Below are positions 6,400 to 54,922 of a DNA stretch of 64,000 nucleotides, piece by piece (the stretch's first letter is position 1; the number at the start of each line of letters is the position of its first letter). Under the pieces are notes generated by a model. It was not told the DNA's origin, did no database searches, and saw only the letters and a program-made list of their open reading frames with translations. Origin of the DNA: Haplodiscus bocki. Lineage: Eukaryota. A program made the translations under genes and the position numbers. Location of the stretch: assembly GCA_965655095.1 (NCBI GenBank), contig OZ296651.1, positions 66,402,001-66,466,000 on the forward strand. Reading direction: 5' to 3'.

Positions 6400-8300
6400 A
6401 GCTATTACTGCATTTTATAAGATAGCTCACGAGCGTAACTGTTATTCAACAATCTCTTCGTAGGTAGCTGCAAAGCTGACCCGTGTTGGCTCACAGAAAA
6501 TTTCATTGAACAGTTCACTCGCAACGGCAAATGGGAAATTCGTAGCACGCGACACGCCATCAGAGGATTTTTATGCTGCTGATAGTTTTGTTGCACACAA
6601 CATGTGAAACCACAATTAAAATGGCGTAAACAGCAAGTTTCATTAGAGAACAGTTTCGGAGTTGACTTTCGATTTTCGCACACCACCGTTGCTTGAAGTT
6701 TTCGGACAACTGATGTTTTTCAATTTTTCTCTTCAATTAGCATGCGCTGGCGTCAATATAATTATCGGGGCCCAAGCTGTTCCTTTTATTGTTTCGAGTA
6801 TTTTTTGTCGAATGAGGTTGTTGTCATCATTTCTGATTGCTTCAAAGATTTTTCTAAGTTTTGGGAGCTTCCTTTTCCACATCCAATGGGCATGCCGAGA
6901 AGCCAAGAAATTTCTGATGGACCACTGCCATATAAGCCAAATGTATTGCTCTGAAAAATATCACTGTTTGGTTAATCTAGATTTGCTCTCAAATGTACTC
7001 AACGGAGCAAGAACACNNNNNNNNNNNNNNNNNNNNNNNNNNNNNNNNNNNNNNNNNNNNNNNNNNNNNNNNNNNNNNNNNNNNNNNNNNNNNNNNNNNN
7101 NNNNNNNNNNNNNNNNNNNNNNNNNNNNNNNNNNNNNNNNNNNNNNNNNNNNNNNNNNNNNNNNNNNNNNNNNNNNNGCTCTAGTGCTTCCGATGGGCTG
7201 AAATGTATCTCCAGGGTTTGCAATTGAGACAAGTTTCAACCTCAGTGAAGAATGTCTAAAAAGTTTCGTCTCTCAAGGTTTTGGAACCAAAAACTGCATA
7301 GAAGCTGTCGTCGAAAGATCAAATAACGCCATCTGAGCCGCCACCAAATTGTGAAGCATTCGCAGGATTGGAATCTCAAAAAATAACTTTCATTGGAAAA
7401 ATATCTGAGCTCTGTAGATTGGGTTGCAATGTTTGTAGGTCTCTAATCAGCTGGGGAGTTAGTTCCAACAGATTTTTTGGCTGTCAGGAAATACGCTTGG
7501 AGAGAGCTTCTGCGGGACATGGAACGCTTCGACGAGTTGATAACAAAGAAAGTGTTTCAAAACAATCCAACGTAAAAAAAATGCGACAGCGGAACATGTT
7601 ATGAGAAGTCCAAAACGTCGTTTTTTACGATTGTCGCCATTTGGTTTTCCTGAGTGAAATGGGAGAGTAAATATCTTGATTCGACGGCATGTGCAGTTGT
7701 AATATTAGCCGCGATTTGCTATTTTCTCCGTTTTCTCAAGAACGATGTGAAGGGAATCTCAGCCTCGAAGTATTTTTGTCTAGTTTGAGAAGTGTTCAAA
7801 GGCAAAATTTCCGATAGTTTTTTCCCTTGGACGGTGGTAGACTTTTGCTTCAAACAAACATGTAGCGCACAGTTGTTGTCGTGAAGAGAAACTGATGTGT
7901 ATATTCTTATTTTGTCTACATATGGGGAAGTTGGCTAAAACAATTGAGTCTCTCGAAGCAGCGACTGTCCGTGCCCATATCAGACTAACGATTATCACGA
8001 GCACGATAGTCTTTCGAACAGAGCAATCCAAGACCATGTCACCATTGCGAGAGTGGTGCCTTAATAAAGTCCCAGCAAGGCGAAGTGCCACAAAAAAATG
8101 CTGCCATCATTTCAGATCTGTTGATGAACTACAGAGCAATGCTACTGTCAGTCCAAAAATGAACCGCAGAAACATTTAGACGTGGTTTTTTGAATGATTT
8201 TAGCTAGACTTACCCGCGATACGCTTGCTTGAAGGTCGATTTTAGTGATTAATTGGAGCAGCTCTTACTTTACCCAGCAGAACAATAAATCAATTTTATC
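6400..8300 (-). pseudogene. Possible highly decayed LTR-retrotransposon pol remnant
   Basis: Only faint motifs, e.g. minus-strand 'YIDAS' (RNase H-like) near 6750; many stops; interrupted by the assembly gap. Confidence 0.2.
7017..7177. other. Assembly gap (N run)
   Basis: 161 N bases. Confidence 1.
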
Positions 8301-9513: not shown

Positions 9514-9609
9514 AGCAGGGTTTCTCATAAACTACTGGTCGGATTTTGATGAAATTTGGTGAGTAGGGAGGTAATGATCAGAGGAAGACCGAGTTCAAAG
9601 TTGGGCATG

Positions 9610-10410
9610 AGTAGTAGAAGTCGGAGCTGAGCTGACGGGGGGGGGGGGTTGAAGACCCTATGTATTAAGATAGGCTATAGCAGCCGAGAGCCGAGAACGG
9701 TCTTCCTCCCATGTATTAAGATAGGGTATAGTTTGGCAATGTACTAAGATATGCAGCCGACTCAATGTAATAAGATAGGCAAAGTATTAAGATATGGAGC
9801 CGACTCAATGTATTAAGATAGGGTATAGTTGGGCAATGCATTAAGATATGGAGCCGACTCAATGTATTAAGATAGGCAAAGTATTAAGATATGGAGCCGA
9901 CTCAATGTATTAAGATAGGCAAGGTATTAAGATATGGAGCTGACTCAATGTATTAAGATCGGCAATGTATTAAGATATGGAGCCGACTCAATGTATTAGG
10001 ATAGGCGGCAATGTATTAAGATATGGAGCCGAGAACCGAAAGCCGACTCAATGTATTAAGATAGGCGATGCATGTACTAAGATAGGGAGTCGGTTCAATG
10101 TATTAAGATATGGAGCCGAGTCAATGTATAAAGTTATGGAATGACTCATTTTCGGCACAATTTTTGGCACTGTGAGATTTTTTCGAAAAAAAAAATTTCA
10201 AAAATTTTTGGGTGCCCACCGCCCGCGCGTATAATTATTACGGCTGCGGATAATTAATACGATTGCGGATACAGTTTCGACTTAATGCTATTTAAAAAGA
10301 TTGTGTAATAGTTTGAAAAAGTTAATTAGAATGTATAAAAATGGACAAAAACATGATATAAACTGCACATTTACATACAAAGATTACATCTAACTACTTA
10401 TAAAAGAGAG
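9610..10410 (+). repeat. Polinton left TIR (~800 bp) with internal CAATGTATTAAGATATGGAGCCGACT tandem array
   Basis: Reverse complement aligns by eye with 25072-25861; array at ~9660-10140; GC box GGGTGCCCACCGCCCGCGCG at ~10210. Confidence 0.92.
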
Positions 10411-10440
10411 CAAAAAAAATACATTTCATAATAAAATGGT

Positions 10441-12908
10441 TTAAAAGTTCAGAGGACGAGTGTGAATACCATCAGAGTCTACAAATCTCTTTGTATAAAG
10501 GTAAGAGAGCCCCTTTTTAGTCTGTTCTAAGTAGCCACACTGTGATGAACAGTTCGGAAACCTCTTTTAGTTGAGGTTACATTAATGAATTCATCCAAAA
10601 CTTTCCCATACTTTGCCAGAGGGCCATCACCACAGTCTTCTAACGTTCTTTTGTTCAAACTTTTGCTGCTGAATTTGTATTTGTTGGAATTGGAGTCATA
10701 ACAACAATAGGTTTTACTGCATAAACACAACATTTCCGTACAACAAAACTCCTCTTTGAAAAGACCAGGCTCTCGTTTATCGTGTTATTTATGTTTTGCG
10801 CAGCAGGTTCTAGGAAAGAAGTTGGTTGTTACATTAGCTATGAAGTCATCTTTGCAATCTTCCGTTCTCAACAAGCCCCATTCAGCTTTAGATTCTTCTC
10901 GAATGCAATCGTACAACTCTTTTTCAGACAGAGCCAAATACATAGAATCAGTGTCCATTTCTAACTCCTCAAATTTGTTGACGTCACAGAATCTGTCAAA
11001 AAAGTTGTAGTAAAGCTCCAACATTCTAAGTTTAGCGTATTGGAGTATGAAAAACCCAACAATGGTTGGTTCTCTGTGCTCAATCTCTGCCTTCGCCAAT
11101 TCTACTTCATACAATTGATCATTGATGTAATCCGAACGCTTGAAAAATTTTGTGTTGATAGCTCCATGTGTTTTCTCATCACTCAAATATTTTGTGACAG
11201 TGTGGCGTTTACGATCCATAATTTGATAGCCGTAGGAGCTGTTGGCAAGCAATTTCATTGTTTTTGCGACAACACTAGAGTTTGGATTCTCGTCTCCTTC
11301 TCGACGGGCATCGACAGCAGATTGCCCAAGTTTATTGAAACATTTAACTGGAGTGTATTCAACGAAGCGATAAATCTTTTTGCATACTAGTCCCAAGTCT
11401 AAATAAAATAGGAGCAGAGGAGTAATAAAAGTTCCGTTTTCAAGGAAATAGCTTGAAATCAACATTTTCCCGTGTTGAGATGGAAGTCCTTCTTTTTCAG
11501 CATAGTCTTTCATCAGTGATCCAATATCATGTCGACCTACGTTTGTATTTTTGGAAATGGGTGGAAAATTAGCAAATTTCTCCTTGAGCTCTTCAGGCAC
11601 TTCAATGTCACATTGTACATAACCAAACAATTTACCGCTTCTTATTTGTTCCAACAGGCTCTTTTCCCTCAGTGGACGTTTGTAAGGAAAAGATTCTCTC
11701 AAATGTTCTTTAACACACGTTGTCGTTTTATACAGATTCCACCACTCACATTCCCACATTTCAACAACATTATATCCTTTTTCTTTGATGTACTGCTTTC
11801 TCATCTGGTCCATTTCTCGCTTTTTGTTGCCGCGTTTGATATCTTCTTCAGTTAGCAAAGGTCGTGCTTCCTGACATGGACAGTAATGATAGAAGCAGCC
11901 CATGGCCTCAAACACAGTATTACAATGTGCGCAAAAACCATCTACCTTGAAAGAGTCAATCTTTTTCTGAGTTCTTGTAGTGTAGAAACTCTCAATTTTA
12001 CACTCAGGTCTTTGTCTTTGGAAATATGACATAACCATGTTCTCAAAGTTTCTGGATTTGTTCTGTTGAGGTTTAAACCTATTAGATTCTGTGTCATGTT
12101 CCCATCGCGTGTATAGTCCTGTTGGCATGGGCTCGCACATAGGATAAGGATACAGCTGACTTGCGTCAATGCCAACAATAGATTTACAAATATTTTCTGA
12201 TTTCCGGATAAAAGTTTCGTCGACTACAGCTTTACGTGTGAAGACGATAGAAGGTCCACCAACCATATCTTCTCGAATCTTTTGCAACAAGTCTTTATCG
12301 GTTTCAATAAATGGATGGAAATTGGCACTGGTAGATTTGTGGAGACAAATATTCGCCAACTTCGGAAGGGTACACCCAAGCTTCAAGATGTCAATTCTTT
12401 TTTTGTGATAAAAGGCAAGCATTTTTTGCATTGCTTCGCAATTTGTCTTCGATAACTTGAGCTGTGAGGTTGTTGACAGCAAAATTGAACACACTATGTC
12501 TTCATTTTCTATTTCAGAATCGACCCAGAAATGTCTAAACGACTGTAACTCTTCTCTCAAACTTTGACCGTCAACATCTCCCACTATGTCATCCACATCA
12601 ATATTGTTCGCTCCAAACCCATTTTGTTTTCCATGTTGAGTGTTTTTGTATTGACGTAAAGCATAAAAGCCAGGAAATTCTGCGTGACACAAATTACACT
12701 TGTATGTTTTTGAAGGTCCTGCTACACTGTGTGGTTTGACAATATGATAATTTAAATCATCTCTCAATTTAGTGGAGAAATTGGGACATTGAGTGCAATA
12801 CAATGTACCAGCAGAACAACTCTTTTTATGACGAGCAAGGTTAAGCTTCGTAATTTGCACACCACAATTTTCACAAGTACTTTTTTCGTTTCGATTGAGG
12901 GAAGGCAT
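10441..12908 (-). pseudogene. polB: Protein-primed family B DNA polymerase (pPolB) with N-terminal zinc fingers and inserted VSR-like nuclease domain; internally deleted
   Basis: Motifs DASQLYP, KLLANSSYG, MDTDS, SKTY; insert KVDGF...GCFYH...EMWECEW; N-terminal CxxC...H fingers. In-frame stops at ~10785 and ~10527; the frame continues to ...HTRPLNF* at 10441. Abrupt junction near 12440-12500 where the exonuclease region is missing. Confidence 0.95.
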
Positions 12909-13020
12909 TTCAATAATAGTAGTTCAACAGAATAATCTGAAAATTAACGTAACAATTTTAGCAACTTGATTGTGACGATGCAAAAAAATAATGGCTAAAA
13001 GTTTGTAGCAAGTGTTTTTA

Positions 13021-13060
13021 TTTTATATTCTCCAATTACGAGAAAATTCTAGAAAATTCC
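13021..13060 (-). promoter_or_regulatory. pPolB promoter: TATAAAA plus perfect 4-unit heat-shock element
   Basis: Plus-strand TTTTATA 13021-13027 (TATAAAA on minus); aGAAa-aTTCt-aGAAa-aTTCc at 13041-13060. Confidence 0.6.
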
Positions 13061-13375
13061 ATAAAAGGAAAGACTAACCATAAAAAGCAAGACTTACTTT
13101 AAAAGAAAATGCCGCATGAGCTGTCAATCCTTCCTTTCATGTTTAGACGAAACATCTGTTAACGTAATTAATTACCCCTTAATCCCCCGACAAGGCGACA
13201 GTTTGTCTGAGAAAATCACTCAAGTGGAACAATTTCCCCTGATAAGTAGACACTCAGTCTGCAAAAAGTAATCAAGTGGAACAAAAGGATCTTATTCTTA
13301 AGTGTCAATCATACCCGTAATAGGAAAATTCTTTTGTTTACTATACAATCAGCCTTCTGGTTAGAAGCTTTTATC

Positions 13376-13403
13376 ATTGGATTGTTCTAGAAAGTTCTAG
13401 AAA
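13376..13403 (+). promoter_or_regulatory. Second perfect 4-unit heat-shock element with adjacent CCAAT box, upstream of the rightward accessory genes
   Basis: ATTGG 13376-13380; gTTCt-aGAAa-gTTCt-aGAAa at 13384-13403. Confidence 0.6.
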
Positions 13404-13573
13404 ACTCACCAGCAAAAAGATTTTAACCACTACTGCCTCACAATTTATTAAACAAAATTGCAATACAGAAGTCTGATTGGACAAAACTGTTGTCCAAAGC
13501 ATTGGAAACCCTTGACAAATCAGCATTTGTTTTACTTTTCATTTTACAATCTGTTCTCTTTCATAATCAGTTA

Positions 13574-14205
13574 ATGTCTACCAAAAAGCAAATTTCTAGC
13601 TTGTGCAATTTTTATTCAGTATACGAAGAAATACCAGAAGAATTTTTGGACGAAACACACGTAGATAGTTACTTTTTTCACAACATTTTGGATATTTCAC
13701 AGTCCCACAACCGAATAGTTCGAGTTAGCAAATGATCCAACAAAAAGTCCTTTGCATTCAAAGTCTTTCATTTTTGCGATTCAAAGTTGCAGCAACGATT
13801 CATTCTCAAGGAAGAAGTCAGCATTTCCAAAAACGAAATTAAGTCTCTACTCGACAGTTTGGGTGAAATTCTCAAAGCTTTGATCAAGCCAGCAAAGTAT
13901 CGCAGATTCCATTACCCAAATCAAAATTTGAGATTGGATTTACAAAAGCAAAAGACGAACTGTTCAGTCATTGTTACAAGGATATGGTTGAGCATTTAAA
14001 CAGACAAATTCGAATGTCGTTTCGGTTTGAAAAGAAGAAGACTTGTGTCTTTTCCATCAAAAACTTTGAACATTACGGTGATCAATTCATTCTTACAGAA
14101 GTTGTCAACCTGGGTTACCGCGAAATCGAACATCTCTACAAGAATCGATTTTTTGTTGCCTACAGGTGTAACATTTTTCAGAGCAACTACAATGTGTACC
14201 ACTGA
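13574..14205 (+). pseudogene. Polinton accessory protein, possibly two PC4-like ssDNA-binding repeats (stop and frameshift)
   Basis: MSTKKQ... reads through a stop at 13733-13735 into FAFKVFHF...EEVSISKNEIKSL; second repeat RQIRMSFRF...VFSIKNFE...EVVNLGYREIEHL. The strand-strand-strand-helix pattern resembles PC4. Confidence 0.4.
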
Positions 14206-14692
14206 TTTTGCGTATGACAATAGTGTCATTATTATCCTTGGGGACTTGTATTGTCCAAATACAAAGTGTTTAGGTAAACTTTGCCTCCACAAAAAGACTT
14301 TTCATTCTCTCGGCAGAAGTGATTATCAATGTCCGCAAAATGGGTCTGTTTGTCAGGTACGCAATATTCCCTTTGAAGATCAAACAAATTCCTTTTTCTT
14401 GTCGTTTGGTGCAGGGGTTTACAATTTTGAAGAGAGTGCGAAAACATTTCAGGATGTTATTGGAGATGTGTATTGTCCTGGCAAGTATTGTCTCAACAGA
14501 GAGAAATGCGAATTTAATGGTGGTTATGTAACAACTCCAAGATCCATTTATGGTTGTGCAAAGCGTGGAGCCTGGTTGTTTGTTCACAAAGTTCCTTTCA
14601 CGTTACAGGAGCACGTTAAGACAACAAAAACAGACAAAACACGCTTTTTCTTTGCTAAAAAAGATGTTACCCGACAAACAAATGTTCATTAA
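14192..14692 (+). CDS. Cysteine-rich Polinton accessory protein with two GD(L/V)YCP modules
   Basis: ILGDLYCPNTKC and VIGDVYCPGKYC; intact ORF. Confidence 0.6.
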   Translation: MCTTDFAYDNSVIIILGDLYCPNTKCLGKLCLHKKTFHSLGRSDYQCPQNGSVCQVRNIPFEDQTNSFFLSFGAGVYNFEESAKTFQDVIGDVYCPGKYCLNREKCEFNGGYVTTPRSIYGCAKRGAWLFVHKVPFTLQEHVKTTKTDKTRFFFAKKDVTRQTNVH

Positions 14693-14867
14693 TGTCCCAT
14701 TTCAATCAACCAAATATGGAAAGAAAGAAATGTGCGTGGACATCATCAAGACTATTGGAGATGTGTATTGTCCAACATGTAGAATTGAAAAGTGTGTTTA
14801 CATTTCAACCAATAAAATGAATAGTTTTACGACTGTAAAAAGTGCAAAGTCTGCTGTCTCGTTTTGA
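14682..14867 (+). CDS. Small Cys-rich protein with a third GDVYCP module
   Basis: MFINVPF...TIGDVYCPTCRIEKC; start overlaps the previous stop. Confidence 0.5.
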   Translation: MFINVPFQSTKYGKKEMCVDIIKTIGDVYCPTCRIEKCVYISTNKMNSFTTVKSAKSAVSF

Positions 14868-15315
14868 ATATTCCTTTTCGGGACCAAAAACCGACAATTA
14901 TTTTGTTTGGTGGTGACGGTACACATTCTTTCGCAAGAAAGACGAGTCGGGATTACGAGAAGCCTTCTCCATTTTTGAAGAATTTTCTCCACCAATCACA
15001 ACCAAGCACATCCGAACCTGAACCAAAAAAAGGTTAAAACGAGTCCAAATATGGAATAAACGTAACCGTTTCCTATTGGTTGATGATTTGAGCAACATAT
15101 TCATTTTTCAAATCATTTTATTCAATTTCAATCTACAATCAACCGCTCAAATTTAGTCTGTCAACTTACACAAAATCATCTTGATCTTCTCAGTCTCCAG
15201 CGACGGAATCCAGTGGACTCTCGATTTTGGACTCGACTCTGTTACTATTGCAGTAAATGATCTCGACCAAAATATAACAATCAGTTCACAAGAAATACCC
15301 CTAGCAGCGTGGTAA

Positions 15316-15759
15316 TTGTTGTTGTCTCAAAGACAAGATTTATTGGATAATCATCTGCCACGAGTGCCAGTCACTGAGAACCAAGAGGGAACAATTGAGA
15401 TCAGAGACGAAGTACTCTCCAGTGTGGGGGCTCACGACTTGGACACTAGCAGCTATCAAGTGTCCGATCTCGAAGATATGGAGTTCAACTGGGAAAATTC
15501 ACAATTGGACATGGACGCAGTTTTCAGACCAAGCATAGACACCCCTTTTTCTCCAACAGTTTTTGACGAATTATTGATGGGCGATGGATCAGTTGAAAAC
15601 CCCATTGTTTTGGATGAAGAGCGAGACAAGGAGAATGCTCCGCCAACAACACCCGTGTCTGAGCGTCCAACCGAACCTCCCAGATTACTGAGAAGTCGTG
15701 CTTTTGGAGCAAGATTAGAAAGTGTACCCGAATATGTTTATAGAAATTTGTTTCAATAA
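15316..15759 (+). CDS. Acidic, probably disordered Polinton accessory protein
   Basis: 147-aa D/E/P-rich ORF with DKEN motif; true start uncertain. Confidence 0.5.
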   Translation: MLLSQRQDLLDNHLPRVPVTENQEGTIEIRDEVLSSVGAHDLDTSSYQVSDLEDMEFNWENSQLDMDAVFRPSIDTPFSPTVFDELLMGDGSVENPIVLDEERDKENAPPTTPVSERPTEPPRLLRSRAFGARLESVPEYVYRNLFQ

Positions 15760-15846
15760 GTATTACTGTGTTGTTGTTTTGATATAATTTTTACTTAACG
15801 TGTTTTATAGCCTTTTAATCATAGCCTTTTTCAAAACTAGTCAGAA

Positions 15847-16107
15847 ATGTGTGAGATAAAAGCTGTATCAATTGTTGCAGTTTTACTATTAGCCGCAGGT
15901 GGTTTTTACACATATCAAATAAATTCAAAGACAAAAGTGGAACAACATAGCGAAATCAAACGTGAAAGTCCTGGCGAAAACGAGTACAAAAAGTATTCTA
16001 TGAACGGAGGCGAATGCTATTATCTAGCTGACGAAGATATTGTAGGCTGTAACTGTACATGGTTATATGGATGAAAACGATGTGAAAAGTACATGTGGTG
16101 GACTTAG
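15847..16107 (+). pseudogene. Secreted/anchored EGF-like growth factor
   Basis: N-terminal hydrophobic segment VSIVAVLLLAAGGFYTY, then SP[G]ENEYKKY[S]MNGGECYYLADEDIVGCNCTWLYG*KRCEKYMWWT*. Restoring GGC>TGC, TCT>TGT and TGA>GGA gives C-x7-C-x5-C-x10-C-x-C-x8-C with the NGG-C and YxGxRC EGF signatures. Confidence 0.8.
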
Positions 16108-16119
16108 GTAAATTGTTTA

Positions 16120-16590
16120 AAATCTGACGCGTTGTAGAAAAAACTTTTTATTCAAAATCTGACAACACGAAAAAAATTTATTCAAAATCACGCCTTTTAC
16201 AAAAATCTTTTTCATTCAAAAACGTGCTTTTTAGAAAAAAATTTTTTCTTTGAAATCGTGCTTTTCAAATTTAATATTCTCTTCAAAATCGTGCTTTTAA
16301 AATATGCACGTAAAACTCAAAATTTTCGCATTTTACGGGGTAAAATGAGACAAAACGTGACTTTTTGTGTGCAATTTCTTTTTCAAAATCGTGCTTTTTA
16401 AAAATAATTTTTTCTTCAAAATCATTTGTTCTAAAAAAATATTTTTCTTCGAAATCATGCTTTTTAAAAGCTCCTTCTTCTTCAAAATCTGACGCCTTGT
16501 AAAAATTTTAATTCAAAATCTGACGCGGCGCAAAATTTTTAATTCAAAATCTGACGCGTCGTAAAATTTTTAATTCAAAGTCTGCTTTTT
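16120..16590. repeat. Internal degenerate tandem array (TTCAAAATCTGACGCG / TTCAAAATCGTGCTTTT units, ~30 bp)
   Basis: About a dozen recognisable units in the non-coding centre of the Polinton. Confidence 0.8.
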
Positions 16591-16645
16591 AAATTGTGTT
16601 TTCAGATTTTGGCTGAATTATAATCAAAGGACAACTTGTTGGATA

Positions 16646-16831
16646 ATGACAACGGCTGGGTGTAAAAAGATTTTTTACGACTGTGTGATATGTGTGTGCC
16701 TCACGTTTGCTACAATCTTTTTCTTTATTGCGTTCCTTATGGCGCTTGGGTTCTTGATGGGTGTGTTGACTATATCATTTGCACTACCAATTGACTCTTA
16801 CAAATCTCTTTGGATTTCAAAAAATGGTTAG
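16646..16831 (+). CDS. Small hydrophobic membrane protein
   Basis: 61 aa with a ~35-residue hydrophobic stretch. Confidence 0.4.
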   Translation: MTTAGCKKIFYDCVICVCLTFATIFFFIAFLMALGFLMGVLTISFALPIDSYKSLWISKNG

Positions 16832-17419
16832 TTTATAAAGATTTTTTTTTACTAAAATACTATCATAATTACCGTGCCCATCTGAAAAACAATCTACAAT
16901 TTTGATTAAACCCAACTCAAATTTAGTCTTTTTAACTTTTTCAATTTTTTCTACAAACACTGATCCACCAGTTTGCGTCGATTTAGTCTTTTGAAAGGAG
17001 CTGAACAAATGCTTTTTGTACTTTTTCCTCAAGAGTCTCTTTTTTGCAATGCTCGGCATTCTGTCCACTCCCTTGTTTCTTTGATTAAATTCAACTGCTC
17101 GTTGCACGTTATCAAACACTTGTCCACGCTTTGCAATAAATTTTCCACTAAATCGATACTTGAATAGTGAATACAGACAGTCCACGTGTTGATAGGTGAA
17201 GCAAAATGTATCCAACTTCTTCAGAAGCTCTTCAACGTTTCCAGGTAGTAATATATGATAATTACAAGAGGGTAAAAAACACGTCTTTTCGTCGTGATGG
17301 GCGATGCAGTAGTCTTTACAAACAATGTATTTTTCATATGTGTTCGCTGAAATAAAAAGTGTTTTTTCTGAGAGTTTTGCGTAAAAGCTGGGTATTGTCT
17401 GTAACATAATGGCTGCCAT
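16817..17419 (-). CDS. Polinton accessory protein (Cys/His N-terminal motif, basic C-terminal half)
   Basis: 200-aa ORF from MAAIM; CKDYCIAHH...CFLPSCNYH; KKRLLRKKYKK NLS-like. Confidence 0.6.
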   Translation of the reverse strand: MAAIMLQTIPSFYAKLSEKTLFISANTYEKYIVCKDYCIAHHDEKTCFLPSCNYHILLPGNVEELLKKLDTFCFTYQHVDCLYSLFKYRFSGKFIAKRGQVFDNVQRAVEFNQRNKGVDRMPSIAKKRLLRKKYKKHLFSSFQKTKSTQTGGSVFVEKIEKVKKTKFELGLIKIVDCFSDGHGNYDSILVKKNLYKLTIF

Positions 17420-17490
17420 CTGAATTTTGCGTCGTAATTTTAACAAATGAATCTGAAAAGACAAGCTTTAATATTAGTTGTACAATCCTA

Positions 17491-17597
17491 CCAAAAAAGG
17501 AAAGAGGTTCCATATATGGAAATGACACGTGACAATGACCAAAAAAGGAAAGAGGTTCCATATAAGGAAATGTCACGTGAGACTGACGCGTACAAAA
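17491..17597. promoter_or_regulatory. Duplicated 48-bp module with 4 CArG boxes and 2 E-boxes in a divergent intergenic region
   Basis: CCAAAAAAGG 17491 and 17539; CCATATATGG 17510; CCATATAAGG 17558; CACGTG 17526 and 17574; TACAAAA (TATA-like) 17591. Confidence 0.6.
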
Positions 17598-17691
17598 GCA
17601 GTAACTTTCATTTCTCAAAATCATTGTTCAACTTTCATTCTCAAAAATCAACTCGCTTCTTTCAACTACCAGCATTCTATCTCGTTCACCC

Positions 17692-18272
17692 ATGGCCTAC
17701 AATACTACAGAAACCTTGGAAAAACAGGCTCGCACCGACTATGTGTACTTTGCCAAGAGTCAAGACAGATTTGGACGCCTTTCTTGGTCCAACAATGACT
17801 CCAAATATTTGGATATTAAACTAAAAGTGTTCAAGAGAGAAAACAAAAATGCAGAATTTCGACTGAGACAAAACCTTTTAATGGGAGAAGCTGATTTCAA
17901 CCAGTTTATTCGACAAAGAAATCAACTAGTTGTTGCAGGAGATATTTTTCTCAGAGAAGAAAATTTGTCTCCAGTTCTTCAATCTACACTGTGCAAAAAC
18001 ATGGAGGAGCAATTGAAGCTTGTTCAAAATGTGATTGACGTTGTAGATCGCCCAAACAGAAAAGTTTGTGTGACAATACTGCGATACAAGGCGGACAACC
18101 CAGACTCCTCCTATGCTCAAGTTCGTCTATTCGGCGGAAGATGGAGGAAGAAAAATTTCAACAAATTGTGTATGTCAACTATAGACTTGACGACTTTATA
18201 TATCTTCTTGACGTCATGAATTCAGTGTATGATAAAGTAATTGCTAATCAACCCATTTGTAATATTTTGTAA
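17692..18272 (+). pseudogene. Tandem PC4-like ssDNA-binding protein (frameshift near 18135)
   Basis: YLDIKLKVFKR...QNLLMGEADFNQF and KVCVTILRY...YAQVRLF...VYVNYRLDDFIYL repeats. Confidence 0.55.
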
Positions 18273-18318
18273 TTGCAACTATTTACTCTAATCATTTATT
18301 CTTTTTGTTCGAGTCAGA

Positions 18319-18735
18319 ATGAGTTGGAACATTGGAGATAATAGAAACCTCTTTCTCAAGCTAAAAACAAAATTGGGACTGTATCCTGTTGAACTTAAAA
18401 GTAAAGACTCTCCCGAAAAAATTACGCTGACTCTGGTAAAATCTCAGCAATTACCAGATTTTGAAGAGGCTGATTCAAAAGATCAAATTTCTTGTTTAAA
18501 ATGGACAATTTACAATGGTACGAGAAAAGTATGCATCAACTTTCAAACTGATACAGACAAGGTGAGAATTGTCGTGTACCGCTATCGAAACAACACGTAT
18601 CTCAAGGATACTGAAATGGATTTGAAGTTGACTGAATACAAAAAACTTCTTGTTAAGCGCGTTTACCTCTTGAGCTACATTGACATTTTCTACAAGCGAT
18701 GTATTGTATTGGATGAAACAACTGTTCATAACTAA
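18319..18735 (+). CDS. Polinton accessory protein, C-terminal PC4-like pattern
   Basis: Intact 138 aa; RKVCINF...VRIVVYRY...EMDLKLTEYKKL. Confidence 0.5.
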   Translation: MSWNIGDNRNLFLKLKTKLGLYPVELKSKDSPEKITLTLVKSQQLPDFEEADSKDQISCLKWTIYNGTRKVCINFQTDTDKVRIVVYRYRNNTYLKDTEMDLKLTEYKKLLVKRVYLLSYIDIFYKRCIVLDETTVHN

Positions 18736-18803
18736 AGCAAACTCTGACAATGATGAATGTTCTCTTTCTAATTAGTGTTTTCCGATTGTACCCGGGATTT
18801 AAA

Positions 18804-19157
18804 ATGTCATTTGAACACAATAGTGTTCTCAAAAATCTATTTTTAAGCGCAGGTTTCTGTTGGAACTCTCGTCTTTCTTTACGTGAGATGGACCAAAAAT
18901 TTCCATTTGGTGGACTCATTGGTTATGGAAACTCCTATTTGGACTCTGTATTTCGTTACTCCAAAGTATTCAGACTGCAAGCAATATTACACGATGCTGC
19001 TGGGGCAGTGCGAGCACATAGTGGCGAAGGACCTGGCTACTGCTACATGATCGGTGGAGGACCTAATTCTTGCTTGCTTGGTCACGTGACTGGACTATTA
19101 TTTTGTCTTTACGTAAAAATCTTTCTACCCTCCATTTTGAACTCCATTGACTTTCGA
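18804..19157 (+). CDS. Phospholipase A2-like protein (parvoviral VP1u/adintovirus-type)
   Basis: GLIGYGNSYLD...QAILHD resembles the xGxGNxxLD...AxxHD PLA2 motif; hydrophobic C-terminus. Confidence 0.5.
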
Positions 19158-19163
19158 AGCAGT

Positions 19164-19619
19164 AGGTCTCGCATTGTACTAGATATAGAGCTAACTGACA
19201 AAATTGTAATTAAAGAACTGGGACTTTTCATTGATGGATATGTACAAGGCTTTTCATTTTGTCCACCAAAGACTTTTAAACCTAATAAACAGACGACATG
19301 GAACACGAGACATCTACATGGAATTGCGTGGAGTAGTGGAAAGCTGGAATAAGAGAAGCTGTTTGCTTTCTTTTACGACATAAAAGTAATGAATGCAGAA
19401 GTGGTTGCTGAAGGACTCGAAAAGTGTAGACTGTTGACCAATCTTCTTGGACAAAATGTAGAAAACTTGGATGACTATGGTTGCCCAAAAATTCAAGATC
19501 TTGTCAAAACGGACAATTTGTGGATCTGCTCTAGTTACCCTTTCCGACACAAAACAAGGCTTCACTGTGCCGAGAGGAAAGCAAAGGTGTACGGAGAATG
19601 GGCTATGCAACATTTGTAA
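19164..19619 (+). pseudogene. DEDD/Maelstrom-like 3'-5' exonuclease-fold protein common in Polintons
   Basis: IVLDIE...IKEL...WNTRHLHGIAWSSG...GLEKC...NLDDYGCP...C...H...HCA; in-frame stop at 19350-19352. Confidence 0.65.
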
Positions 19620-19720
19620 TATTTGTACGTGTTTATTGTGTTTGTGTTTACTATTAATTCAATTCTTTCAACTCGACATGATTTCTTCATCCATTTTGAG
19701 AAATTGAGCTTAGAAAACAG

Positions 19721-19981
19721 ATGACTGATCAAGAAGATAACATTAATCTAGGTAAAATTGTCTTTGACGACAACAATCATGAGAGAAAGTCTTGGGCTTG
19801 TTTGGGACAAACCTGTTCCAGATCGATGATTGTGTCTCTATCCCAACTTTTTGTTATTTTGTTGATCATCTTGGGATGCTTTTTGAGAATTCACCTCTCG
19901 AAAACTTGTGACGAATCAACTGTTTGGGTTGGAATTTTCTGCAGTGCGGCAGGATACATTTTACCCTCACCAAGATTATGA
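19721..19981 (+). CDS. Small two-TM membrane protein
   Basis: SQLFVILLIILGCF and VWVGIFCSAAGYILPSP; stop overlaps the ATPase start. Confidence 0.65.
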   Translation: MTDQEDNINLGKIVFDDNNHERKSWACLGQTCSRSMIVSLSQLFVILLIILGCFLRIHLSKTCDESTVWVGIFCSAAGYILPSPRL

Positions 19982-20570
19982 ACAAGTTAATTTCTACAAC
20001 GAATCGAGTCTTAATTTCATTGGTTGGTCCTTCCGAAACTGGAAAATCGCAACTTATTTAGAATTGGCTAAAAATTGGAACATTTCAACCAAAGTTTGAC
20101 AAGGTATACTTTTTCTATCAACATTCCCAACCTCTTTACGATGTTATGCAAAAGGAAATTGAAAAACTCGAGTTTGTGCAAGGAGTAAACTTTGAATTTA
20201 TTGATTCGTTAAAAAAACAACGGTACAAAGTACTTGTTAATTTTTGATGATTCTTGTGGAGAGATTTGCAACTCAAAGGCCTTTGTTGACATTGCCACCG
20301 CTGGGAGAGATCGGGGTCTGAGAACAATCTATCTTAAACACAACCTTTTTCACCATAGCAAACTAGGAAGAGACGTTGAGTTACAAAACACTCTTATTGT
20401 TCTCTTCAAGTCCCCTCGTGATGTAATGCAAATAACTACCCTCAGCACACAGTTGGGTCTTGGTTCAGAGCTGGTTGGGTGGTATCGAGATGCAACGTCT
20501 GTTCCCTTTGGTCATTTGTTGATTGATTTGTCACCGTGGACAGACGACAGATTATGTTATTGCACAAACA
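19978..20570 (+). pseudogene. A32/FtsK-like DNA packaging ATPase
   Basis: Walker A GPSETGKS, Walker B LLIFDD, AGRDRG, HNLF, LFKSPRD, FGHLLIDL; one stop and one frameshift. Confidence 0.92.
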
Positions 20571-20599
20571 GAGAAATTGCTCTACTCTCCAAGTGTTCC

Positions 20600-20865
20600 A
20601 ATCGGTTTCCCGCAATTGCAAAAGCCACTTTCTTCAGTCTTACCCAAAAGAATTTATCCGGTTTCTATGCGAATGCATAGTAAATCTGCTCAAAGGAAAC
20701 TTGCAAGCCATAAAAAGAAATCACGTGGTAAAGTTTCAAGACGAAGTTTGGTTACTATCGCTAAAAAGAAAAACTTGGAAGCAAAGAAAAAACGTTCTGT
20801 CGTCAGAAAAGTGATTGGAACTAATAACAGTCATTACACCTCCCGTCATTAATCATTTGTCTTGA
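20600..20865 (+). pseudogene. Conserved small basic Polinton protein (putative core protein)
   Basis: FIRFLCECIVNLLKGNL...KRKTWKQRKNVL pattern typical of Polinton ORFs next to the ATPase. Confidence 0.6.
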
Positions 20866-20866
20866 T

Positions 20867-21265
20867 ATGGAACAGTTTGTTCTTGTCCCAGCTTCTGTGT
20901 ATAACAAGAGTGAACACTCTGTTACAAAGCAGGAACTTGCAAAGTACAAAGCTGAGCAACCCCCCACGTAGCAGATTGATTCTCTAAACCTTAACAAGAA
21001 ACTGTTTGACAAAGCAGACCCCCTAGTAGACAAGATTTTATACTGTTCTCGCATCAAGCTTTCAAATTCGCAAAGAATAATTTTGGACGGTGTTGATACA
21101 AGAGTGGTAATCTCGGACTTTACTCTACATTTGCGTCGAAAAAACGCAGACGTTCCAGACATTTACTTTACTTTACTCGACGCTGCTGGAATATCACCCT
21201 CTCTAGTTTTTAACCAGAATGCCAAAGCTAAAGATAGAGGAAGCTGGGTCCCTTTCAAAGTATGA
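20867..21265 (+). pseudogene. Conserved Polinton protein upstream of integrase
   Basis: MEQFVLVP...LDAAGISPSLVFN...W; one in-frame stop near 20970. Confidence 0.55.
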
Positions 21266-22157
21266 ACTTCAGAAACTGCAGAGACTGTATACGCAAGGTG
21301 CTGCTGCTTACGGTTCTGTACGCAACCTGGCAAAAGCTAGCCGATTACCAGAGTCAAAGGTTAGACAGTTTTTACATTCAAAGGATTCTTATACAAAATT
21401 TACTTTGGCAGCACGAAATTTCAAGAGAATGAGGGCTTTTGCTAGATTCAGAAACGAAATTAGGTGCATGGATCTTGCTTACGTTGATAAATTGGCAAAA
21501 GAGACTAACGGAGTAAAGTATTTACTAGTTCGTCAAGACTTGTTTGATAGAACTGTAAATGCTAAAGGAATGAAAACAAAAGACTCAGAAGAAACTGTGA
21601 AAGCCTTTTCATCCATGATTACAAAAACGAATCGACCAAAAAAGAATTGGGTTGACAAATGAACCGAATTTGCTGGAGCGTTTAAAAAATTTTGTGCTGC
21701 TGAGGGGATACAAGTTTACTCTACAATGAGTGAGACTAAGGGTGCTTTTGCTGAACGTACAATACGATCATTGAAATATATTCTTTACCGACACATGGAA
21801 GATTATGCGTGTAAGTATATACACAAACTACCTCAATTTAGCACCACCTTAAACTCTAGAAGAAACAATTCGATAGATATGAGACCCAATACCGTAAAGA
21901 ATTGCGACTTTATGTCTACTCTTTACAGTAAACACTTACGAGAATTCAAGAAACCTATATTTAAAATTGGTGACAGAGTGCGAATCTCAAAGTATGACTT
22001 GCCTTTTCGCAAAGGGTACAAACCGCAGTTTACACGAAAATTTTTTGAAATTGTAGCAAGTGCAACAAGAAAACCGCCAACATACACAATCAAGGATGAG
22101 CAAGGCGAGGTTATTCAAGGCAAATTTTATCAAAAAGAGCTCATTAAAGTCATTTAG
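21219..22157 (+). pseudogene. int: Retroviral-like DDE integrase of Polinton
   Basis: MDLAYV, QDLFDR, WVDK*TEF, FAERTIRSLK, FKIGDRVRISK, FRKGY; one in-frame stop at 21660-21662. Confidence 0.95.
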
Positions 22158-22159
22158 CA

Positions 22160-22962
22160 ATGGATTCATTTACAATAGAGTTGGTTTCTAACGCTTCTGG
22201 AGAATTGTTTCCAGACAATACACTGAGCTCTTTTACAAACTTTTTACCAGAACAAGTAAATTTGGACGGGCAATGGGAGGTTGCAATTTCAGAAGTATCC
22301 TACCCATCAATGTACCAAAACATAACGGAGGGATATTTCAAGTTATTTGACCAGAAACTTTCAAAATCTACGTCAACCTACAATCTAGAACCCGGGCTAT
22401 ACACTTCCATCACAGACATTGTGGAAGCCATGAATACGCTTGTTCAAGAGAGGAACAACCACAACGAAACTTGCATAACAGTCAAGGCTTCTCGTAGATC
22501 ACAAAAAGTTGTAATTATGCTTGAAAACGATACCTCTGGTCTTGCATTCTGTAACACCGACTTGGGTCACATTTTTGGTAACAATGTGGGAAACCCATTT
22601 GGGGTACTGATGAAAGGAAAAGGCACCATGAACCACAATTTGCTTATGGCATTGTTCGTATCCATTCGCTGATGATTTACAGCGATGTAGTAGAGTACAG
22701 CATTGTTGGAGATACAAAGGCTCCCTTGCTACGATGCTTTCCCTTTATCTCAAAGCTGAAGGGAGCAGACATTAAAACAACTGGACAGTACATGAACTAT
22801 CAGACATTCAGTAACCTACAGTTTAGACCACTGCTCAAAAATTCTTTTCATAGTATACACATTGATCTTAGAGACACATCTGGTGAAAAAACACCCTTTG
22901 TGTCTGTCGGTATCACTCGGCTTGTTTTGATGTTTAGAAAGGTGTCCAGCATTCATTTTTAA
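22160..22962 (+). pseudogene. Minor capsid protein (penton)
   Basis: FTIELVSNAS...FPDNTLSSFTNFLP...GQWEVAISEVSYP; IYSDVVEYSIVGDTKAPLLR; frameshift near 22625. Confidence 0.9.
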
Positions 22963-22980
22963 CACATACGATACGACAAG

Positions 22981-23346
22981 ATGGTTGCTTCAAGACAGGT
23001 AGAAATTCCATACTATAGAGCGGTTGGAAGACAGAGGGGAAGGGGATTTGGGGCTCTTGCACAATTTATTGGGAGAACTGCAATTCCATTTTTGCGTAAA
23101 TATGTCGTCCCAGCTGCAAAACGCGTAGGTGCTGACTTGTTGGAATTTGCTGTGCCAGAAATTGCAGAGGTTGTTAGTGGTAGAAAGAATTTCAAGACGG
23201 CTGCAAAGAGTGTGGGAAAGCAAACTCTGAAAAAACAATTGGGTGAAGGAAGCAGGAAAAGGACTGGAAACAGAATCATTCCAACAAAATCTACTAAACA
23301 ATCCAGTCGGTCGCGAAGAGACATTTTTGCAAACATTTCTCGTTGA
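22981..23346 (+). CDS. pVII-like basic core protein
   Basis: RQRGRGFG...GRTAIPFL; K/R-rich; lies between penton and MCP. Confidence 0.8.
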   Translation: MVASRQVEIPYYRAVGRQRGRGFGALAQFIGRTAIPFLRKYVVPAAKRVGADLLEFAVPEIAEVVSGRKNFKTAAKSVGKQTLKKQLGEGSRKRTGNRIIPTKSTKQSSRSRRDIFANISR

Positions 23347-23348
23347 TC

Positions 23349-24703
23349 ATGTCAAACAAAATTTTTCGGTACCAAACTTTTGTGGCAGTGTCTGGAAATC
23401 TTGGAGGGAAAATCCCAATTGTTGACGATGCCCTGTCCTCGCTTGAACAAGAAATTTATCCAACTACCTCACTTGATGAAAACTGCATAGAGTTTGAATT
23501 TCAAACAGATCGGAACTTTTATGTTGATTTGAGACAGTCTTTTCTGGCATTGAAGCTCAAATTTGTCAAAGGACGTGGTTACGATACCTACGAGAGTAAG
23601 GAAAAGAAAAAGGAGCACAAAGACGAATCTGTTGTTTTCACTGAAAGAGGAACAGACGACGACGAAGAGGAAGAAGAAGTAGCTCGAGTTACCTATGTAA
23701 ACAACATTATGCATTCAATATTTTCAAATGTTGAAGTGTACATTAACAATCAGCAGATTTACAATTCCAATGGAATATATGCACACAAATCTTTAACGTC
23801 AAACAATTTTAAAGCAGCAATCTCTGAATACAAGGGAGTTTTGCATTGTGAAGGCTATGACTATGAGCAGGATCCTGAAGATATTGCTAAACCCCTACCT
23901 GATCCCTTTTTTACAAGGAGAATGAAACTGCTGAGTAGACCTGACGGTTTCATGTTGTATGGCAAAATGGGGATTGACTTTTTCTCAACTTTTGAACTGT
24001 TCTATCCAAACATGAAAATTAGACTGCGTCTAATTAGAGCAAGACCCAATTTTTACATGATAAGCGACAACCCCAATGTCAGTCTTGGAATTGTGGATTG
24101 TTCACTTTACACTCGTTGTAATGCTCTCAAGGATGATTATCATAAAAAGAGAATGGACATGCTCGCTTATGCTCCTGTAGAATACAACTACTTGGAGACA
24201 TTGGCAAAGACATTCATCATACCTGCGAGACAAAATCAATTCATTCAAGAAAAAATTTTCAACAATGCTCCCATTCGTCGGATTGCTATTGCAATGAACA
24301 CAAACTCTGCCTTTACTGGTTCTTTTACAGAAAACCCATTCTGGTATCAACAATTTGATCTCAAACAAATTAGAATACTCAGAGGAGGTCAGCCAATTGT
24401 AGATTTTGATACTGCTGACAATTGTCGTCTATATGTGACTACCATGAAAGCAATGAACTTTCAGGATGATATTCCCTCAATCCCATTGATGATTTCAAAG
24501 ATCACTATGTGCTGGTGTTTGACTTGACTTCAATGCAAGACGCTACTGAAAACTGCCATTATCCTGAACTTGTTGGAGAACCAGTGAGACTGGAGCTAAA
24601 TTTTACCAATCCTCTTGAAAACGTTACTGAACTCATTGTATTGGGTGAACGAATGTCGTCAGTTGCAGTTGACAAGTTTGGTGTTGTTGGAAAGAATGTG
24701 TAA
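23349..24703 (+). pseudogene. Double jelly-roll major capsid protein
   Basis: IEFEF...YVDLRQSFL; VNNIMHSIFSNVEVYIN; NPFWYQQFDL; FDLT...RLELNF; frameshift near 24490. Confidence 0.92.
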
Positions 24704-24705
24704 AA

Positions 24706-25098
24706 ATGGATAATTTTGCTCTGCAACAAATTATCAGTCGTATCCCTCTGCTCAAATTTCGATACCTTGGTTCGTTTCCCTCAGACTATGTTCCAACTCT
24801 TGATAAAGGCACTTTTGCGATTATCAACACGCAACCCAGCAATATGCAGGGTGAACATTGGATCATGATTGCAAATTTCCGACACGAATTGTATTTTGCA
24901 GACTCTCTTGGATGTAAAGGGTACAGTTTTCTCAAGCAGCACTACAGGCAAATGATGCCAGCACCCCTACAGTCTCTCCCAAGTGTATGCGGCTTTTATA
25001 CAAAATATGCTGCTTTTCATCTCTTCAAGTTTCGACAGGAAGAAATTACAGCAGTTCACGATGTTAATGTACTCTCTTTTATAAGTAATTTCAGGTAA
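24706..25098 (+). CDS. Adenain-family cysteine maturation protease
   Basis: INTQPSNMQGEHW, FADSLG, LQS...VCGFY (His/Asp/Gln/Cys catalytic set). Confidence 0.93.
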   Translation: MDNFALQQIISRIPLLKFRYLGSFPSDYVPTLDKGTFAIINTQPSNMQGEHWIMIANFRHELYFADSLGCKGYSFLKQHYRQMMPAPLQSLPSVCGFYTKYAAFHLFKFRQEEITAVHDVNVLSFISNFR

Positions 25099-25861
25099 TC
25101 TTTCGATGTAAAGGTGCAGTTTATATCTTGTTCTTGTCCATTTTTATACAATCTATTTAGGTTTTTCCGACTATCACAAAATCTTTTTACATAGCATTAA
25201 GTCAAAACAGTATCCGCAAGCGTAATAAAAAATCCGCTGGCGTAATAAATATCCGCAGGCGTAAAAATTATCCGCAGGCGTAATAATTATACGCGCGGGC
25301 GGTGGGCACCCAAGAATTTTTGAAATGTTTTTTCGAAAAAATCTCACAGTGCCAAAAATTGTGAAGAAAATGAGTCATTCCATATCTTTATGCATTGAGA
25401 CGAACTGCTATCCTAATACATTGACTCGGCTCCATCTCTTAATACATTCAATCGACTGCCTATCTTATTACATGCATCGCCTATCTTAATACATTGAGTC
25501 GGCTTTCTGCTCTCGGCTCCATATCTTTATACATTGCCGCCTATCCTAATACATTGAGTCGGCTCCATATCTTAATACATTGCCTATCTTAACACATTGA
25601 GTCGGTTCCGTATCTTAATACATTGAATCGGCTTCCTATGTTAATACATTGAGTCGACTCCATATCTTAATACATTGAGTCGGCTCCATATCTTAAAACA
25701 TTGAGTCGGCTCCATATCTTAATACATTGCCAAACTATACCCTATCTTAATACATGGGAGGAAAACCTTTCTCGGCTCTCGGCTGCTATAGCCTATCTTA
25801 ATACATAGGGCCTTCAACCCCCCCCCCCCCCCCCGTCAGCTCAGCTCTGACTTCTACTACT
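25072..25861 (-). repeat. Polinton right TIR
   Basis: Inverted copy of 9610-10410; overlaps the last codons of the protease. Confidence 0.92.
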
Positions 25862-28835: not shown

Positions 28836-28907
28836 CCCCCATTTTCCCAATACGTCTTCGCTGTATGGGGGAGAGCTCCACCACCGATGGGGCTACGAAA
28901 AGGGAAA
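28836..28907 (+). ncRNA. HDV-like self-cleaving ribozyme at the element 5' end
   Basis: P1 CCCCCAU/AUGGGGG; P2 UUUCCC/GGGAAA; P3 ACG/UGU; L3 UCUUCGC; P1.1 CU/AG; P4 AGCUCCA/UGGGGCU; J4/2 ACGAA with catalytic C at 28896. P1 begins exactly at the TSD boundary. Confidence 0.85.
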
Positions 28908-43964: not shown

Positions 43965-44335
43965 TTTTATCAAAGTACATTAACAGTGTAAACTCCAGTA
44001 ATATCTTCTTGTCGGAACTTGAAGAGATGAAAGGCTGCATATATCGCGTAGAAACCGCAAACGCTGGAATGAAAATGGAGTGGTTCTGGCATCATCTGCT
44101 TGCACTGCTGCTCGAGGAAACAGAGTCGACCGATAAATTCTGCAAAATACAGTTTGTGACGAGAGTTTGCAATCTTTATCGAATGCTCACCCTGCAGATT
44201 ACTGGGTTGCGTATTGATAACGGTAAAAGTGTCATTATCAAGAGTTGGAACATAGCCAGAGGAAAAAGAACAACGGTACCGATACATGATGAGTCGGATT
44301 CGGTTGATTTATTTGCTGGCGAGAAACACTATTTC
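43965..44335 (-). pseudogene. Adenain protease relic
   Basis: YVPTLDNDTFTVINTQPSNLQGEHS...VCGFYAIYAAFHLFKFRQE. Confidence 0.88.
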
Positions 44336-44344
44336 CTTTGGATT

Positions 44345-53950: not shown

Positions 53951-54226
53951 TCATCATTGAGTATTATGCGATCCTCGTTTGTTTTATAGAGCTTGTATTT
54001 TCTGTCTGATGTCAGTAGCACTTCATCATGGGGTTGGCCTAGAAATTTCAGTTCCATGTTCTTCCAGACTAGATCAACATCTTGCTCTACTCGTATTCGC
54101 GCATTTGCTTTGATTGCACGCAGGGAATACGACGTAGTGTTTCCGTCGTTCTTTTTAAATTCTTTCACACCAGTTCGCGATGTGGTTGGTTTCTTGTTCG
54201 TTGTTTGCTACGAACTCCATTGCGTC

Positions 54227-54922
54227 TTACCTAGATTGTTCTTTCCGTTGAATGTTTTGTTCTTCTGACCCAGTCTCATTTTCTGCTCGGGTGAAGAAGA
54301 ACTGTTCTTCATCAGCCACATCCGAAGAGGATGTTGTCACCTCAATGGGTGTTGTCCGAAAGTCTTCCCGGACTTTGAGACGTATCTTCTCCGTAACTTT
54401 TAATTCAAGTCCGGAGAGAACGTCTGCTGCGGTGTTGATTGATCCCACAATGTGAGCTTCTTTGAACTTAAGTTGCAATACGAAGTCACATGCACTCCAC
54501 AGTGCTGGTGGACTTGCATTCGTTCGGAAAAATTGCTCGACTGATTTGTTGTCTGTCAAAATGATTGTCAGTTTTGTTGCTTCCCACAAAATGTCTGCAA
54601 ACTGTAGGAACGCCATGTAGGTTTGCAAAAAACGTTTTGAGTTGATGGACATTTTTAGTTGCGCTGGGGAGGAGATTTTTGATCGGAACGTCACGGGTGC
54701 GTGCGTTTTCCGCTTTGATTGAATTTTTTGATCAGGGTTATCTTCGATCATGAGAGCATAACCAGCGCTTCTGAAGCTTGCGTCAGTCATCACGACAAGT
54801 TGTTTTTCTGGAATGGGTTGTTTCAGTGCTAATTCAGAAACATCACTAGGCACTAATTTGGCTGAAGCAAAGGTTTCCTTCAATTCTAACGTAAGGTTGA
54901 TTGGCACTTCAGCTTGAAGCAA
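54227..54922 (-). pseudogene. Gypsy RNase H
   Basis: VMTDASF, ILTDNKS, NTAADVLS. Confidence 0.88.

Follow-up and report, generated by a model that had tools for sequence, protein, structure and literature searches.

Two four-unit heat-shock element (HSE) arrays lie in the divergent promoter of pPolB, the polymerase gene of a Polinton (Maverick) element, and we read them, with modest confidence, as sites through which heat-shock factor (HSF) would raise transcription of pPolB, ORF-R1 (R1) and a zinc-ribbon-like gene under protein-damaging stress, over a promoter of CArG and CCAAT words. The arrays were found in a 64,000-base stretch of DNA (the window; Table 1), and they suggest that stress could switch this Polinton family on.

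Table 1. Features of the Polinton and of its divergent promoter, in window coordinates.
Feature	Position	Strand	Remarks
Polinton/Maverick	9610-25861	.	16,252 bp; ends complete, interior decayed
Left TIR (terminal inverted repeat)	9610-10410	+	internal 43-bp-type minisatellite; repeat families D3, D6
pPolB gene	10444-12908	-	broken; N-terminal C2H2 fingers
TATA box TATAAAA	13021-13027	-	faces pPolB; inferred start ~30 nt downstream
HSE1	13037-13066	.	four perfect units, one single-mismatch unit per side
CArG box, perfect CC-W6-GG	13059-13068	.	overlaps last HSE1 unit
CCAAT word	13376-13380	-	reads ATTGG on plus; abuts HSE2
HSE2	13380-13409	.	four perfect units, one single-mismatch unit per side
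NF-Y-type word, better match	13473-13480	-	CTGATTGG on plus, CCAATCAG on minus
CCAAT word	13501-13505	-	ATTGG on plus
ORF-R1	13574-14205	+	nearest gene on the right; intact relatives have 208 aa
Cysteine-rich zinc-ribbon-like gene	14192-14692	+	directly after R1
Broken gene read as packaging ATPase	~19978-20680	+	similarity to L005 ORFs
Broken gene read as integrase	21219-22157	+	frame holds stop; similarity to L005 ORFs
Broken gene read as minor capsid protein	22160-22962	+	similarity to L005 ORFs
Major capsid protein, double jelly-roll	23349-24703	+	frameshifted near 24485
Adenovirus-type cysteine protease	24706-25098	+	Pfam Peptidase_C5 E 0.0028, below curated cut-off
Right TIR	25072-25861	-	26-bp-type minisatellite

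Two HSE arrays between pPolB and R1

A preliminary description of the window had reported two perfect four-unit HSEs in the divergent promoter of pPolB. We found both 20-mers (13041-13060 and 13384-13403), in the 665-bp gap that separates the start codons of pPolB (12908) and R1 (13574). Their cores, GAAAATTCTAGAAAATTC (13042-13059) and TTCTAGAAAGTTCTAGAA (13385-13402), are the only GAA/TTC arrays of four perfect units at 5-bp phase in the whole window, and both sites hold the at least three contiguous alternating nGAAn units that define an HSE. Each array moreover continues to six in-phase units with two mismatches, an extension absent from the preliminary description. Seven of the eight core units have the AGAAN form, with the A in first place, which is the preferred form of the HSE unit (PMC2871787). 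HSF trimers bind at least three alternating nGAAn units, and longer arrays cooperatively; because three units take one trimer and four or more take two (PMC5059998, PMC2871787), both core forms count as HSEs.

How often would such arrays arise by chance? Exact Markov calculations (orders 1-5, with the composition of the window, the element or the intergenic sequence) predicted 0.027-0.046 four-unit arrays per 64 kb, and tetramers are not common in the surrounding 64 kb. For a pair within 665 bp the expectation fell to 0.75-2.2e-5. Each core pattern had one match against a mean of 0.02 in dinucleotide-shuffled sequence, a count reached by 2 of 100 shuffles. Three further perfect three-unit arrays occur in the window, all outside the Polinton, and none was found elsewhere inside it. 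The background for four-unit arrays also took in 33 loci of distant relatives (165,884 bp), which held no four-unit array and four three-unit arrays, all within pPolB coding sequence. The HSE pair is far beyond chance, even allowing for the many motifs that a reader might notice. The word TTCTAGAA by itself was not enriched in the window (4 observed, 1.5 expected; 8 of 100 shuffles reached 4).

STAT and BCL6 sites require three letters between TTC and GAA; because the spacing is two letters throughout both arrays, we rejected these factors as candidates. Alternatively, the arrays may bind a protein encoded by the element itself (R1, the zinc-ribbon protein or pPolB through its C2H2 fingers) in a form of self-regulation, their likeness to HSEs being incidental. 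Relatives of pPolB do bear N-terminal C2H2 fingers and R1 belongs to no known family, which would suit such a role. However, the arrays fit the HSF consensus exactly, down to the 5-bp phase and the AGAAN bias, and two loci of distant relatives that retain the N-terminal region of pPolB (L005 and L007) nevertheless have no such array in their available upstream sequence. We regard self-regulation as very improbable.

From left to right, the gap contains TATAAAA (minus strand), CCAAT (13032), HSE1, the CArG box, paired words, ATTGG (13376), HSE2, CTGATTGG and ATTGG (13501). The TATA box next to HSE1 stands on the minus strand, as first described; it lies 14 nt from the HSE1 core, and the classic HSE-TATA spacing of Drosophila heat-shock genes is 14-28 nt. 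At position 13022 most placed contigs differ from the window, yet a TATA-like word remains. No plus-strand TATA word was found in the gap before R1. The CCAAT word said to accompany HSE2 does adjoin it; it lies on the minus strand, and the better NF-Y word is the one at 13473-13480. The proposed symmetry of the arrays holds only roughly, with 133 nt to the ATG on the pPolB side and 171 nt on the R1 side. The canonical position of an HSE is within ~400 bp upstream of where transcription begins. Judged by sequence and position, the arrays sit in the element's own promoter.

The sequence of TATA box, proximal HSE and CCAAT word resembles the hsp70 layout to which it had been compared. Mammalian hsp70 promoters are composed of TATA, HSE and NF-Y words (PMC4336284), and hsp70 promoters share with the Polinton gap a TATA-adjacent proximal HSE, a second HSE within ~400 bp and NF-Y words (PMC2871787, PMC4336284). 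Unlike them, the Polinton promoter serves a viral polymerase and R1 and lacks a TATA word on its rightward side, and its pPolB start is a predicted one.

CArG, E-box and CCAAT words also occur in other gene gaps of the Polinton. Polintons need enzymes of the host to be transcribed (PMC4405056), and host-type words in the gene gaps fit this dependence. All eight perfect CArG boxes of the window (13059, 14544, 14710, 15045, 17491, 17510, 17539 and 17558) lie inside the Polinton, which makes up 25% of the sequence, and their total by itself is ordinary (8 against 4.6 expected). Most are flanked by GGAA: CC-W6-GGAA, a pattern picked post hoc, had 10 matches against 1.1 expected. A second divergent gap (17420-17692) holds four of the boxes, together with CACGTG E-boxes, within a tandem duplication of 48 bp. 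The CArG word at 13059-13068 is of the SRF/MADS type. The paired words of the pPolB-R1 gap are TTAACGTAA (12944 and 13159) and TCAAGTGG (13220 and 13272), both absent elsewhere in the window, and (T/G)GATTGACA (13122 and 13303), which is PBX/PREP-like.

Structure and decay of the element

The Polinton ends in AGTAGT and is flanked by a 6-bp target duplication with one mismatch (GGCATG/GGCGTG); AG..CT termini and a 6-bp target duplication are features of the class. Its inverted repeats (9610-10410 versus 25861-25072) are 77% identical overall by blastn and 95% identical, that is, 5% different, over the outer 168 nt. The length of 16,252 bp and repeats of ~800 bp also fit the class, which comprises elements of 15-20 kb with terminal inverted repeats (PMC4405056), and the gene set is common to two other loci, L004 and L005. 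The insertion target was a short repeated host sequence (9520-9609 and 25862-26060); the copy of the target unit on the right is 90% identical over 91 nt and may point to a target preference.

Polintons encode a protein-primed family B DNA polymerase, a double jelly-roll major capsid protein, an adenovirus-type protease, an RVE integrase and a packaging ATPase. pPolB is 90% identical to intact database relatives of ~1446 aa. Using tblastn with the intact relative P0002, we found that the window gene is frameshifted near 12510 and 10520 and that the part matching residues ~156-781 is gone. Motifs that we take to be those of a family B polymerase are visible in the translation. A homologue, P0015, matched Pfam DNA_pol_B_2 (PF03175) above cut-off; because the close relatives of pPolB gave no Pfam match to PF03175, the link to family B is only transitive, through P0015. 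Members of the pPolB group (P0002, P0009; alignment A1) combine N-terminal C2H2 fingers with a Vsr/DUF559-like nuclease insert, and a distant relative, P0013, has a C-terminal NADAR domain (E 5e-16).

A stop near 13733 interrupts R1, which is also frameshifted near 13870; 547 of 655 candidate relatives matched R1 at E<=0.001. The family had no Pfam match above cut-off and no atlas match, and a fold search gave no support, the predicted model being weak (pLDDT 37). A weak profile link joins R1 to an ORF of L005, which also matches the ORF at 17605-18219. R1 had looked by eye like a PC4-like ssDNA-binding protein, a candidate that we dropped since neither Pfam, the atlas nor the fold search supported it. 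A relative of the next gene, P0235, gave Pfam zinc-ribbon matches below cut-off only.

ORFs in the region of the ATPase, integrase and minor capsid genes are 45-62% identical to ORFs of L005 (46-62% for the integrase and ATPase ORFs). We assigned these three putative labels from motifs and gene order; the pieces tried matched no Pfam family, and the integrase piece matched nothing in the PDB. The major capsid ORF is 37% identical to its relative in L004, whose predicted fold (model pLDDT 49) resembles the capsids of SGIV, PBCV-1, Sputnik and mavirus (best E 2.4e-11).

In the window copy, stops or frameshifts interrupt R1, the ATPase gene and the two capsid genes. This copy is dead and unable to replicate by itself, so that at most its remains are transcribed. 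The prophage-like induction suggested in the preliminary description calls for intact replication, integration and capsid genes, which the window copy has lost through deletion, stops and frameshifts. Intact pPolB genes are present in relatives.

Two smaller observations concern the interior of the element. An ORF at 15841-16110, broken by a stop and without a Pfam match, encodes a hydrophobic N-terminus and, by eye, an EGF-like cysteine pattern. Growth-factor loops are known from poxviruses, and the EGF-like ORF and the CArG boxes hint at such a loop here. Between convergent genes lies an AT-rich tandem array of 31-34-bp units (16116-16600).

Conservation of the arrays among relatives

The family is large: 14,585 contigs of run X1 were placed on 1.1 kb, contig depth not being equal to copy number. 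X1 is not independent, since the window may derive from it. Three of 19 low-share runs entered the comparison. In four runs from four studies the gap was covered in 30, 30, 28 and 30 of 30 bins, and in X5, labelled a coral metagenome, 61 of 747 placed records were at least 99% identical, so that close relatives are present there. No DNA of close relatives was found in viral contigs or in a first metagenome scan.

Among the 40 of 180 substitutions and 12 of 29 indels listed, none fell in HSE1 or in units 1-3 of HSE2, numbers too few for power, and with those 40 substitutions no excess conservation of the HSE core over its neighbours was demonstrated. The dominant X13 contig over HSE1 had six differences and one gap in 117 bases; four of the differences map outside the site. 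HSE2 had an altered fourth unit in ~70-76% of X1 depth and in all placed depth of X5, X12 and X13. At position 13401 in X1, a two-letter deletion accounted for 9,387 of 15,160, plus 1,300 with a substitution.

Peptides allowed a second view of HSE2. Eleven of the 206 database proteins examined start far enough upstream to span it, and a perfect three-unit array is possible in seven of these (6/10 if P0111 and P0304 are one locus, as they may be), compared with three of the 52 windows that served as controls; copies that lost in-frame stops are over-represented in this sample, and wobble hides some positions. One mismatch would be needed in three proteins, and the stretch is absent from one. 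Four perfect units are compatible with none of the 11. Four of ten further proteins were read, none of which extends to HSE2. The single protein spanning HSE1 (P0305) permits units 1-3 and has a broken fourth unit.

The upstream sequences examined in more diverged relatives have no HSE. A fragment of a second Polinton subfamily (43347-45613) lies inverted in the window, with 73% identity across its capsid and protease genes. Its piece at 43634-43830, which resembles 12920-13150, is without the TATA box and HSE1 and keeps CArG-like words, and a similar variant appears at contig ends in X12 and X13. The end-region piece of the subfamily keeps the words CCATAAAA and TGATTGACA; at its flanks are a 25-bp segment of the terminal repeat, duplicated, and a 28-bp array. 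In the 33 loci of distant relatives the best segments are 23-63% identical and the upstream regions do not align with the gap; none of 17 upstream regions (10,622 bp, starts estimated, two shorter than 330 bp) contained a three-unit HSE. L004 and L005 have ~50% pPolB identity and another gene order, with pPolB near the contig start and converging on the protease/capsid block. The gap before their R1-like gene holds three CCAAT words and TCACGTGA, without an HSE, and the matching gap of L005 contains CCAAT and E-box words. Three loci (L001-L003) are contigs with a Polinton-type pPolB that sit in metagenome-assembled genomes of bacteria; they are probably DNA of eukaryotes or viruses that was binned along with the bacterial sequence.

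From the contigs, the peptides and the distant relatives, the three-unit core looks widespread in the close family and perfect fourth units appear confined to a subset, and to judge by these comparisons the HSE is a lineage feature, not a Polinton-wide one. The conservation across copies for which the preliminary description had looked thus extends to a three-unit core in most relatives examined, whereas the perfect tetramers are a trait of this copy or subfamily.

Could the arrays be a neutral by-product? HSE1 and HSE2 are also 10-bp tandem duplications, two of the seven such clusters in the window, and slippage of 10 bp may have doubled TTC..GAA words in a founder copy, from which they then spread with the family, one such word being part of the flank of a CArG box. 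Consistent with this explanation, short duplications and rearrangements abound in the gap, as seen from contig joints, the last HSE1 unit overlaps a TTCC-W6-GGAA word that recurs in the Polinton, and fourth units vary among copies while excess conservation of the core was not demonstrated. However, duplication contributes only ~0.024 expected arrays per window, and two arrays in one promoter, with flanking units in phase and one of them beside a TATA box, would be far rarer. A purely neutral origin seems to us unlikely. Should the sites be inactive, the element would be no more than a common decayed Polinton in which a duplication arose by chance.

Proposed HSF input and known systems

What would HSF do at this promoter? 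Under heat or another protein-damaging stress, HSF bound at HSE1 would drive pPolB from the adjacent TATA box, and HSF at HSE2 together with the CCAAT boxes would drive R1 and the zinc-ribbon gene, while CArG, CCAAT and E-box words may keep activity at a basal level or tie it to growth. A rise in pPolB would, in intact copies, increase replication and reinsertion. A scan of the window found no HSE near the integrase, ATPase or capsid genes of the Polinton. Because of this the heat input would be confined to the replication and regulatory arm, and induction of the whole element in the manner of a prophage, as the preliminary description had suggested, would need a cascade of downstream regulators, for which R1 is a candidate by its position only. 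The HSEs may thus be a lineage-level overlay on the older, host-type promoter of one high-copy lineage, and they probably grew by 10-bp duplication, as in the plant retrotransposon ONSEN.

We favour HSF control on several grounds: (i) the odds of the pair, the six-unit phase and the AGAAN bias; (ii) the TATA box at 14 nt and the host-type words in the gene gaps; (iii) the three-unit cores in the peptides and coverage of the gap in four runs; and (iv) the ONSEN precedent. Against it we count the variation of the fourth units and the subfamily piece and 17 distant regions without HSE. Polintovirus expression in the coral Stylophora pistillata, which grouped by colony and not by heat in an unreplicated comparison not known to include this family (PMC11131425), also counts against it.

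The same coral data are in keeping with a different explanation, in which the HSF sites are real and are used outside heat, in germline or stem cells during development, upon wounding, or under the stress of a co-infecting virus. Such use would place the timing of activity in heritable cells or at co-infection. HSFs have a role in differentiation too, and short HSEs in the lytic-switch promoters of herpesviruses are bound by HSF2 when there is no acute stress (PMC12047821); Hydra Mavericks go up during regeneration (PMC13465017). The three-unit core of most relatives would serve this role, and the CArG boxes suggest growth or wound signalling. However, arrays of four to six units favour cooperative binding of the HSF1 type, and protist relatives woken by giant viruses use a giant virus promoter motif, not host stress (PMC10945749, 10.1101/2025.10.09.676808). 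We hold this use outside heat to be rather improbable, and HSF input under protein-damaging stress remains our preferred reading.

A stronger version of HSF control, which we consider rather improbable, is that in the Polinton lineage of coral-associated samples host HSF would be a latency-exit switch: heat would raise pPolB and early regulators in intact copies and so start a cascade leading to replication, insertions and possibly particles. If true, animal Polintons would have a named trigger, and the switch would be to eukaryotes what SOS induction is to prophages.

Plants and nematodes are known to harbour mobile elements driven by HSEs, so that the principle is not new; the element class is. 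ONSEN/COPIA78, COPIA37 and TERESTRA are plant LTR retrotransposons with demonstrated heat induction that likewise carry three- or four-unit HSF sites in their own promoters, sites gained and lost by lineage; the four-unit element of ONSEN arose by duplication and predicts the heat response (PMC5059998). In contrast, the Polinton is DNA-virus-like and has two putative sites in an internal divergent promoter. Caenorhabditis Helitrons are closer in being animal DNA transposons with HSEs upstream of their own replication gene and induced by HSF-1 (PMC6927752). Helitrons carry dozens of tandem HSEs, which they lend to host genes (PMC6927752), whereas the Polinton has two internal ones, more than 3 kb from the nearest element end. 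KSHV ORF50, EBV BZLF1 and EBNA-1 offer a parallel in latent nuclear DNA viruses with host HSFs at a regulatory promoter; their HSEs have two or three units, binding has been demonstrated, and the viruses are unrelated to Polinton (PMC12047821). Finally, coral polintoviruses (PMC11131425) and protist virophages and polinton-like viruses (PLVs) (PMC10945749, 10.1101/2025.10.09.676808) are similarly integrated and have double jelly-roll capsids, the endogenous protist elements being triggered by giant viruses via viral promoter motifs. The main text of the coral study does not contain the word 'promoter' (PMC11131425).

To our knowledge, the trigger of animal Polintons is still unknown, and in the openly licensed PubMed Central and bioRxiv literature we came across no Polinton described as carrying an HSE. 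According to a review of 2015, experimental identification of polintoviruses was still to come (PMC4405056). With a host-factor site in the polymerase promoter, the question of what activates animal Polintons can be put to a direct test. In one acoel genome, Mavericks account for 4.5% of the sequence (PMC6451197). Since close relatives are present in the coral metagenome X5, working sites would connect heat stress in the sea with the activity of a very abundant virus-like element.

The window also contains a LINE (28887-33194) that encodes a PHD finger, an endonuclease, a reverse transcriptase and an RNase H, an LTR-type RT-RNase H piece (~54200-54800) and a run of N (7017-7177).
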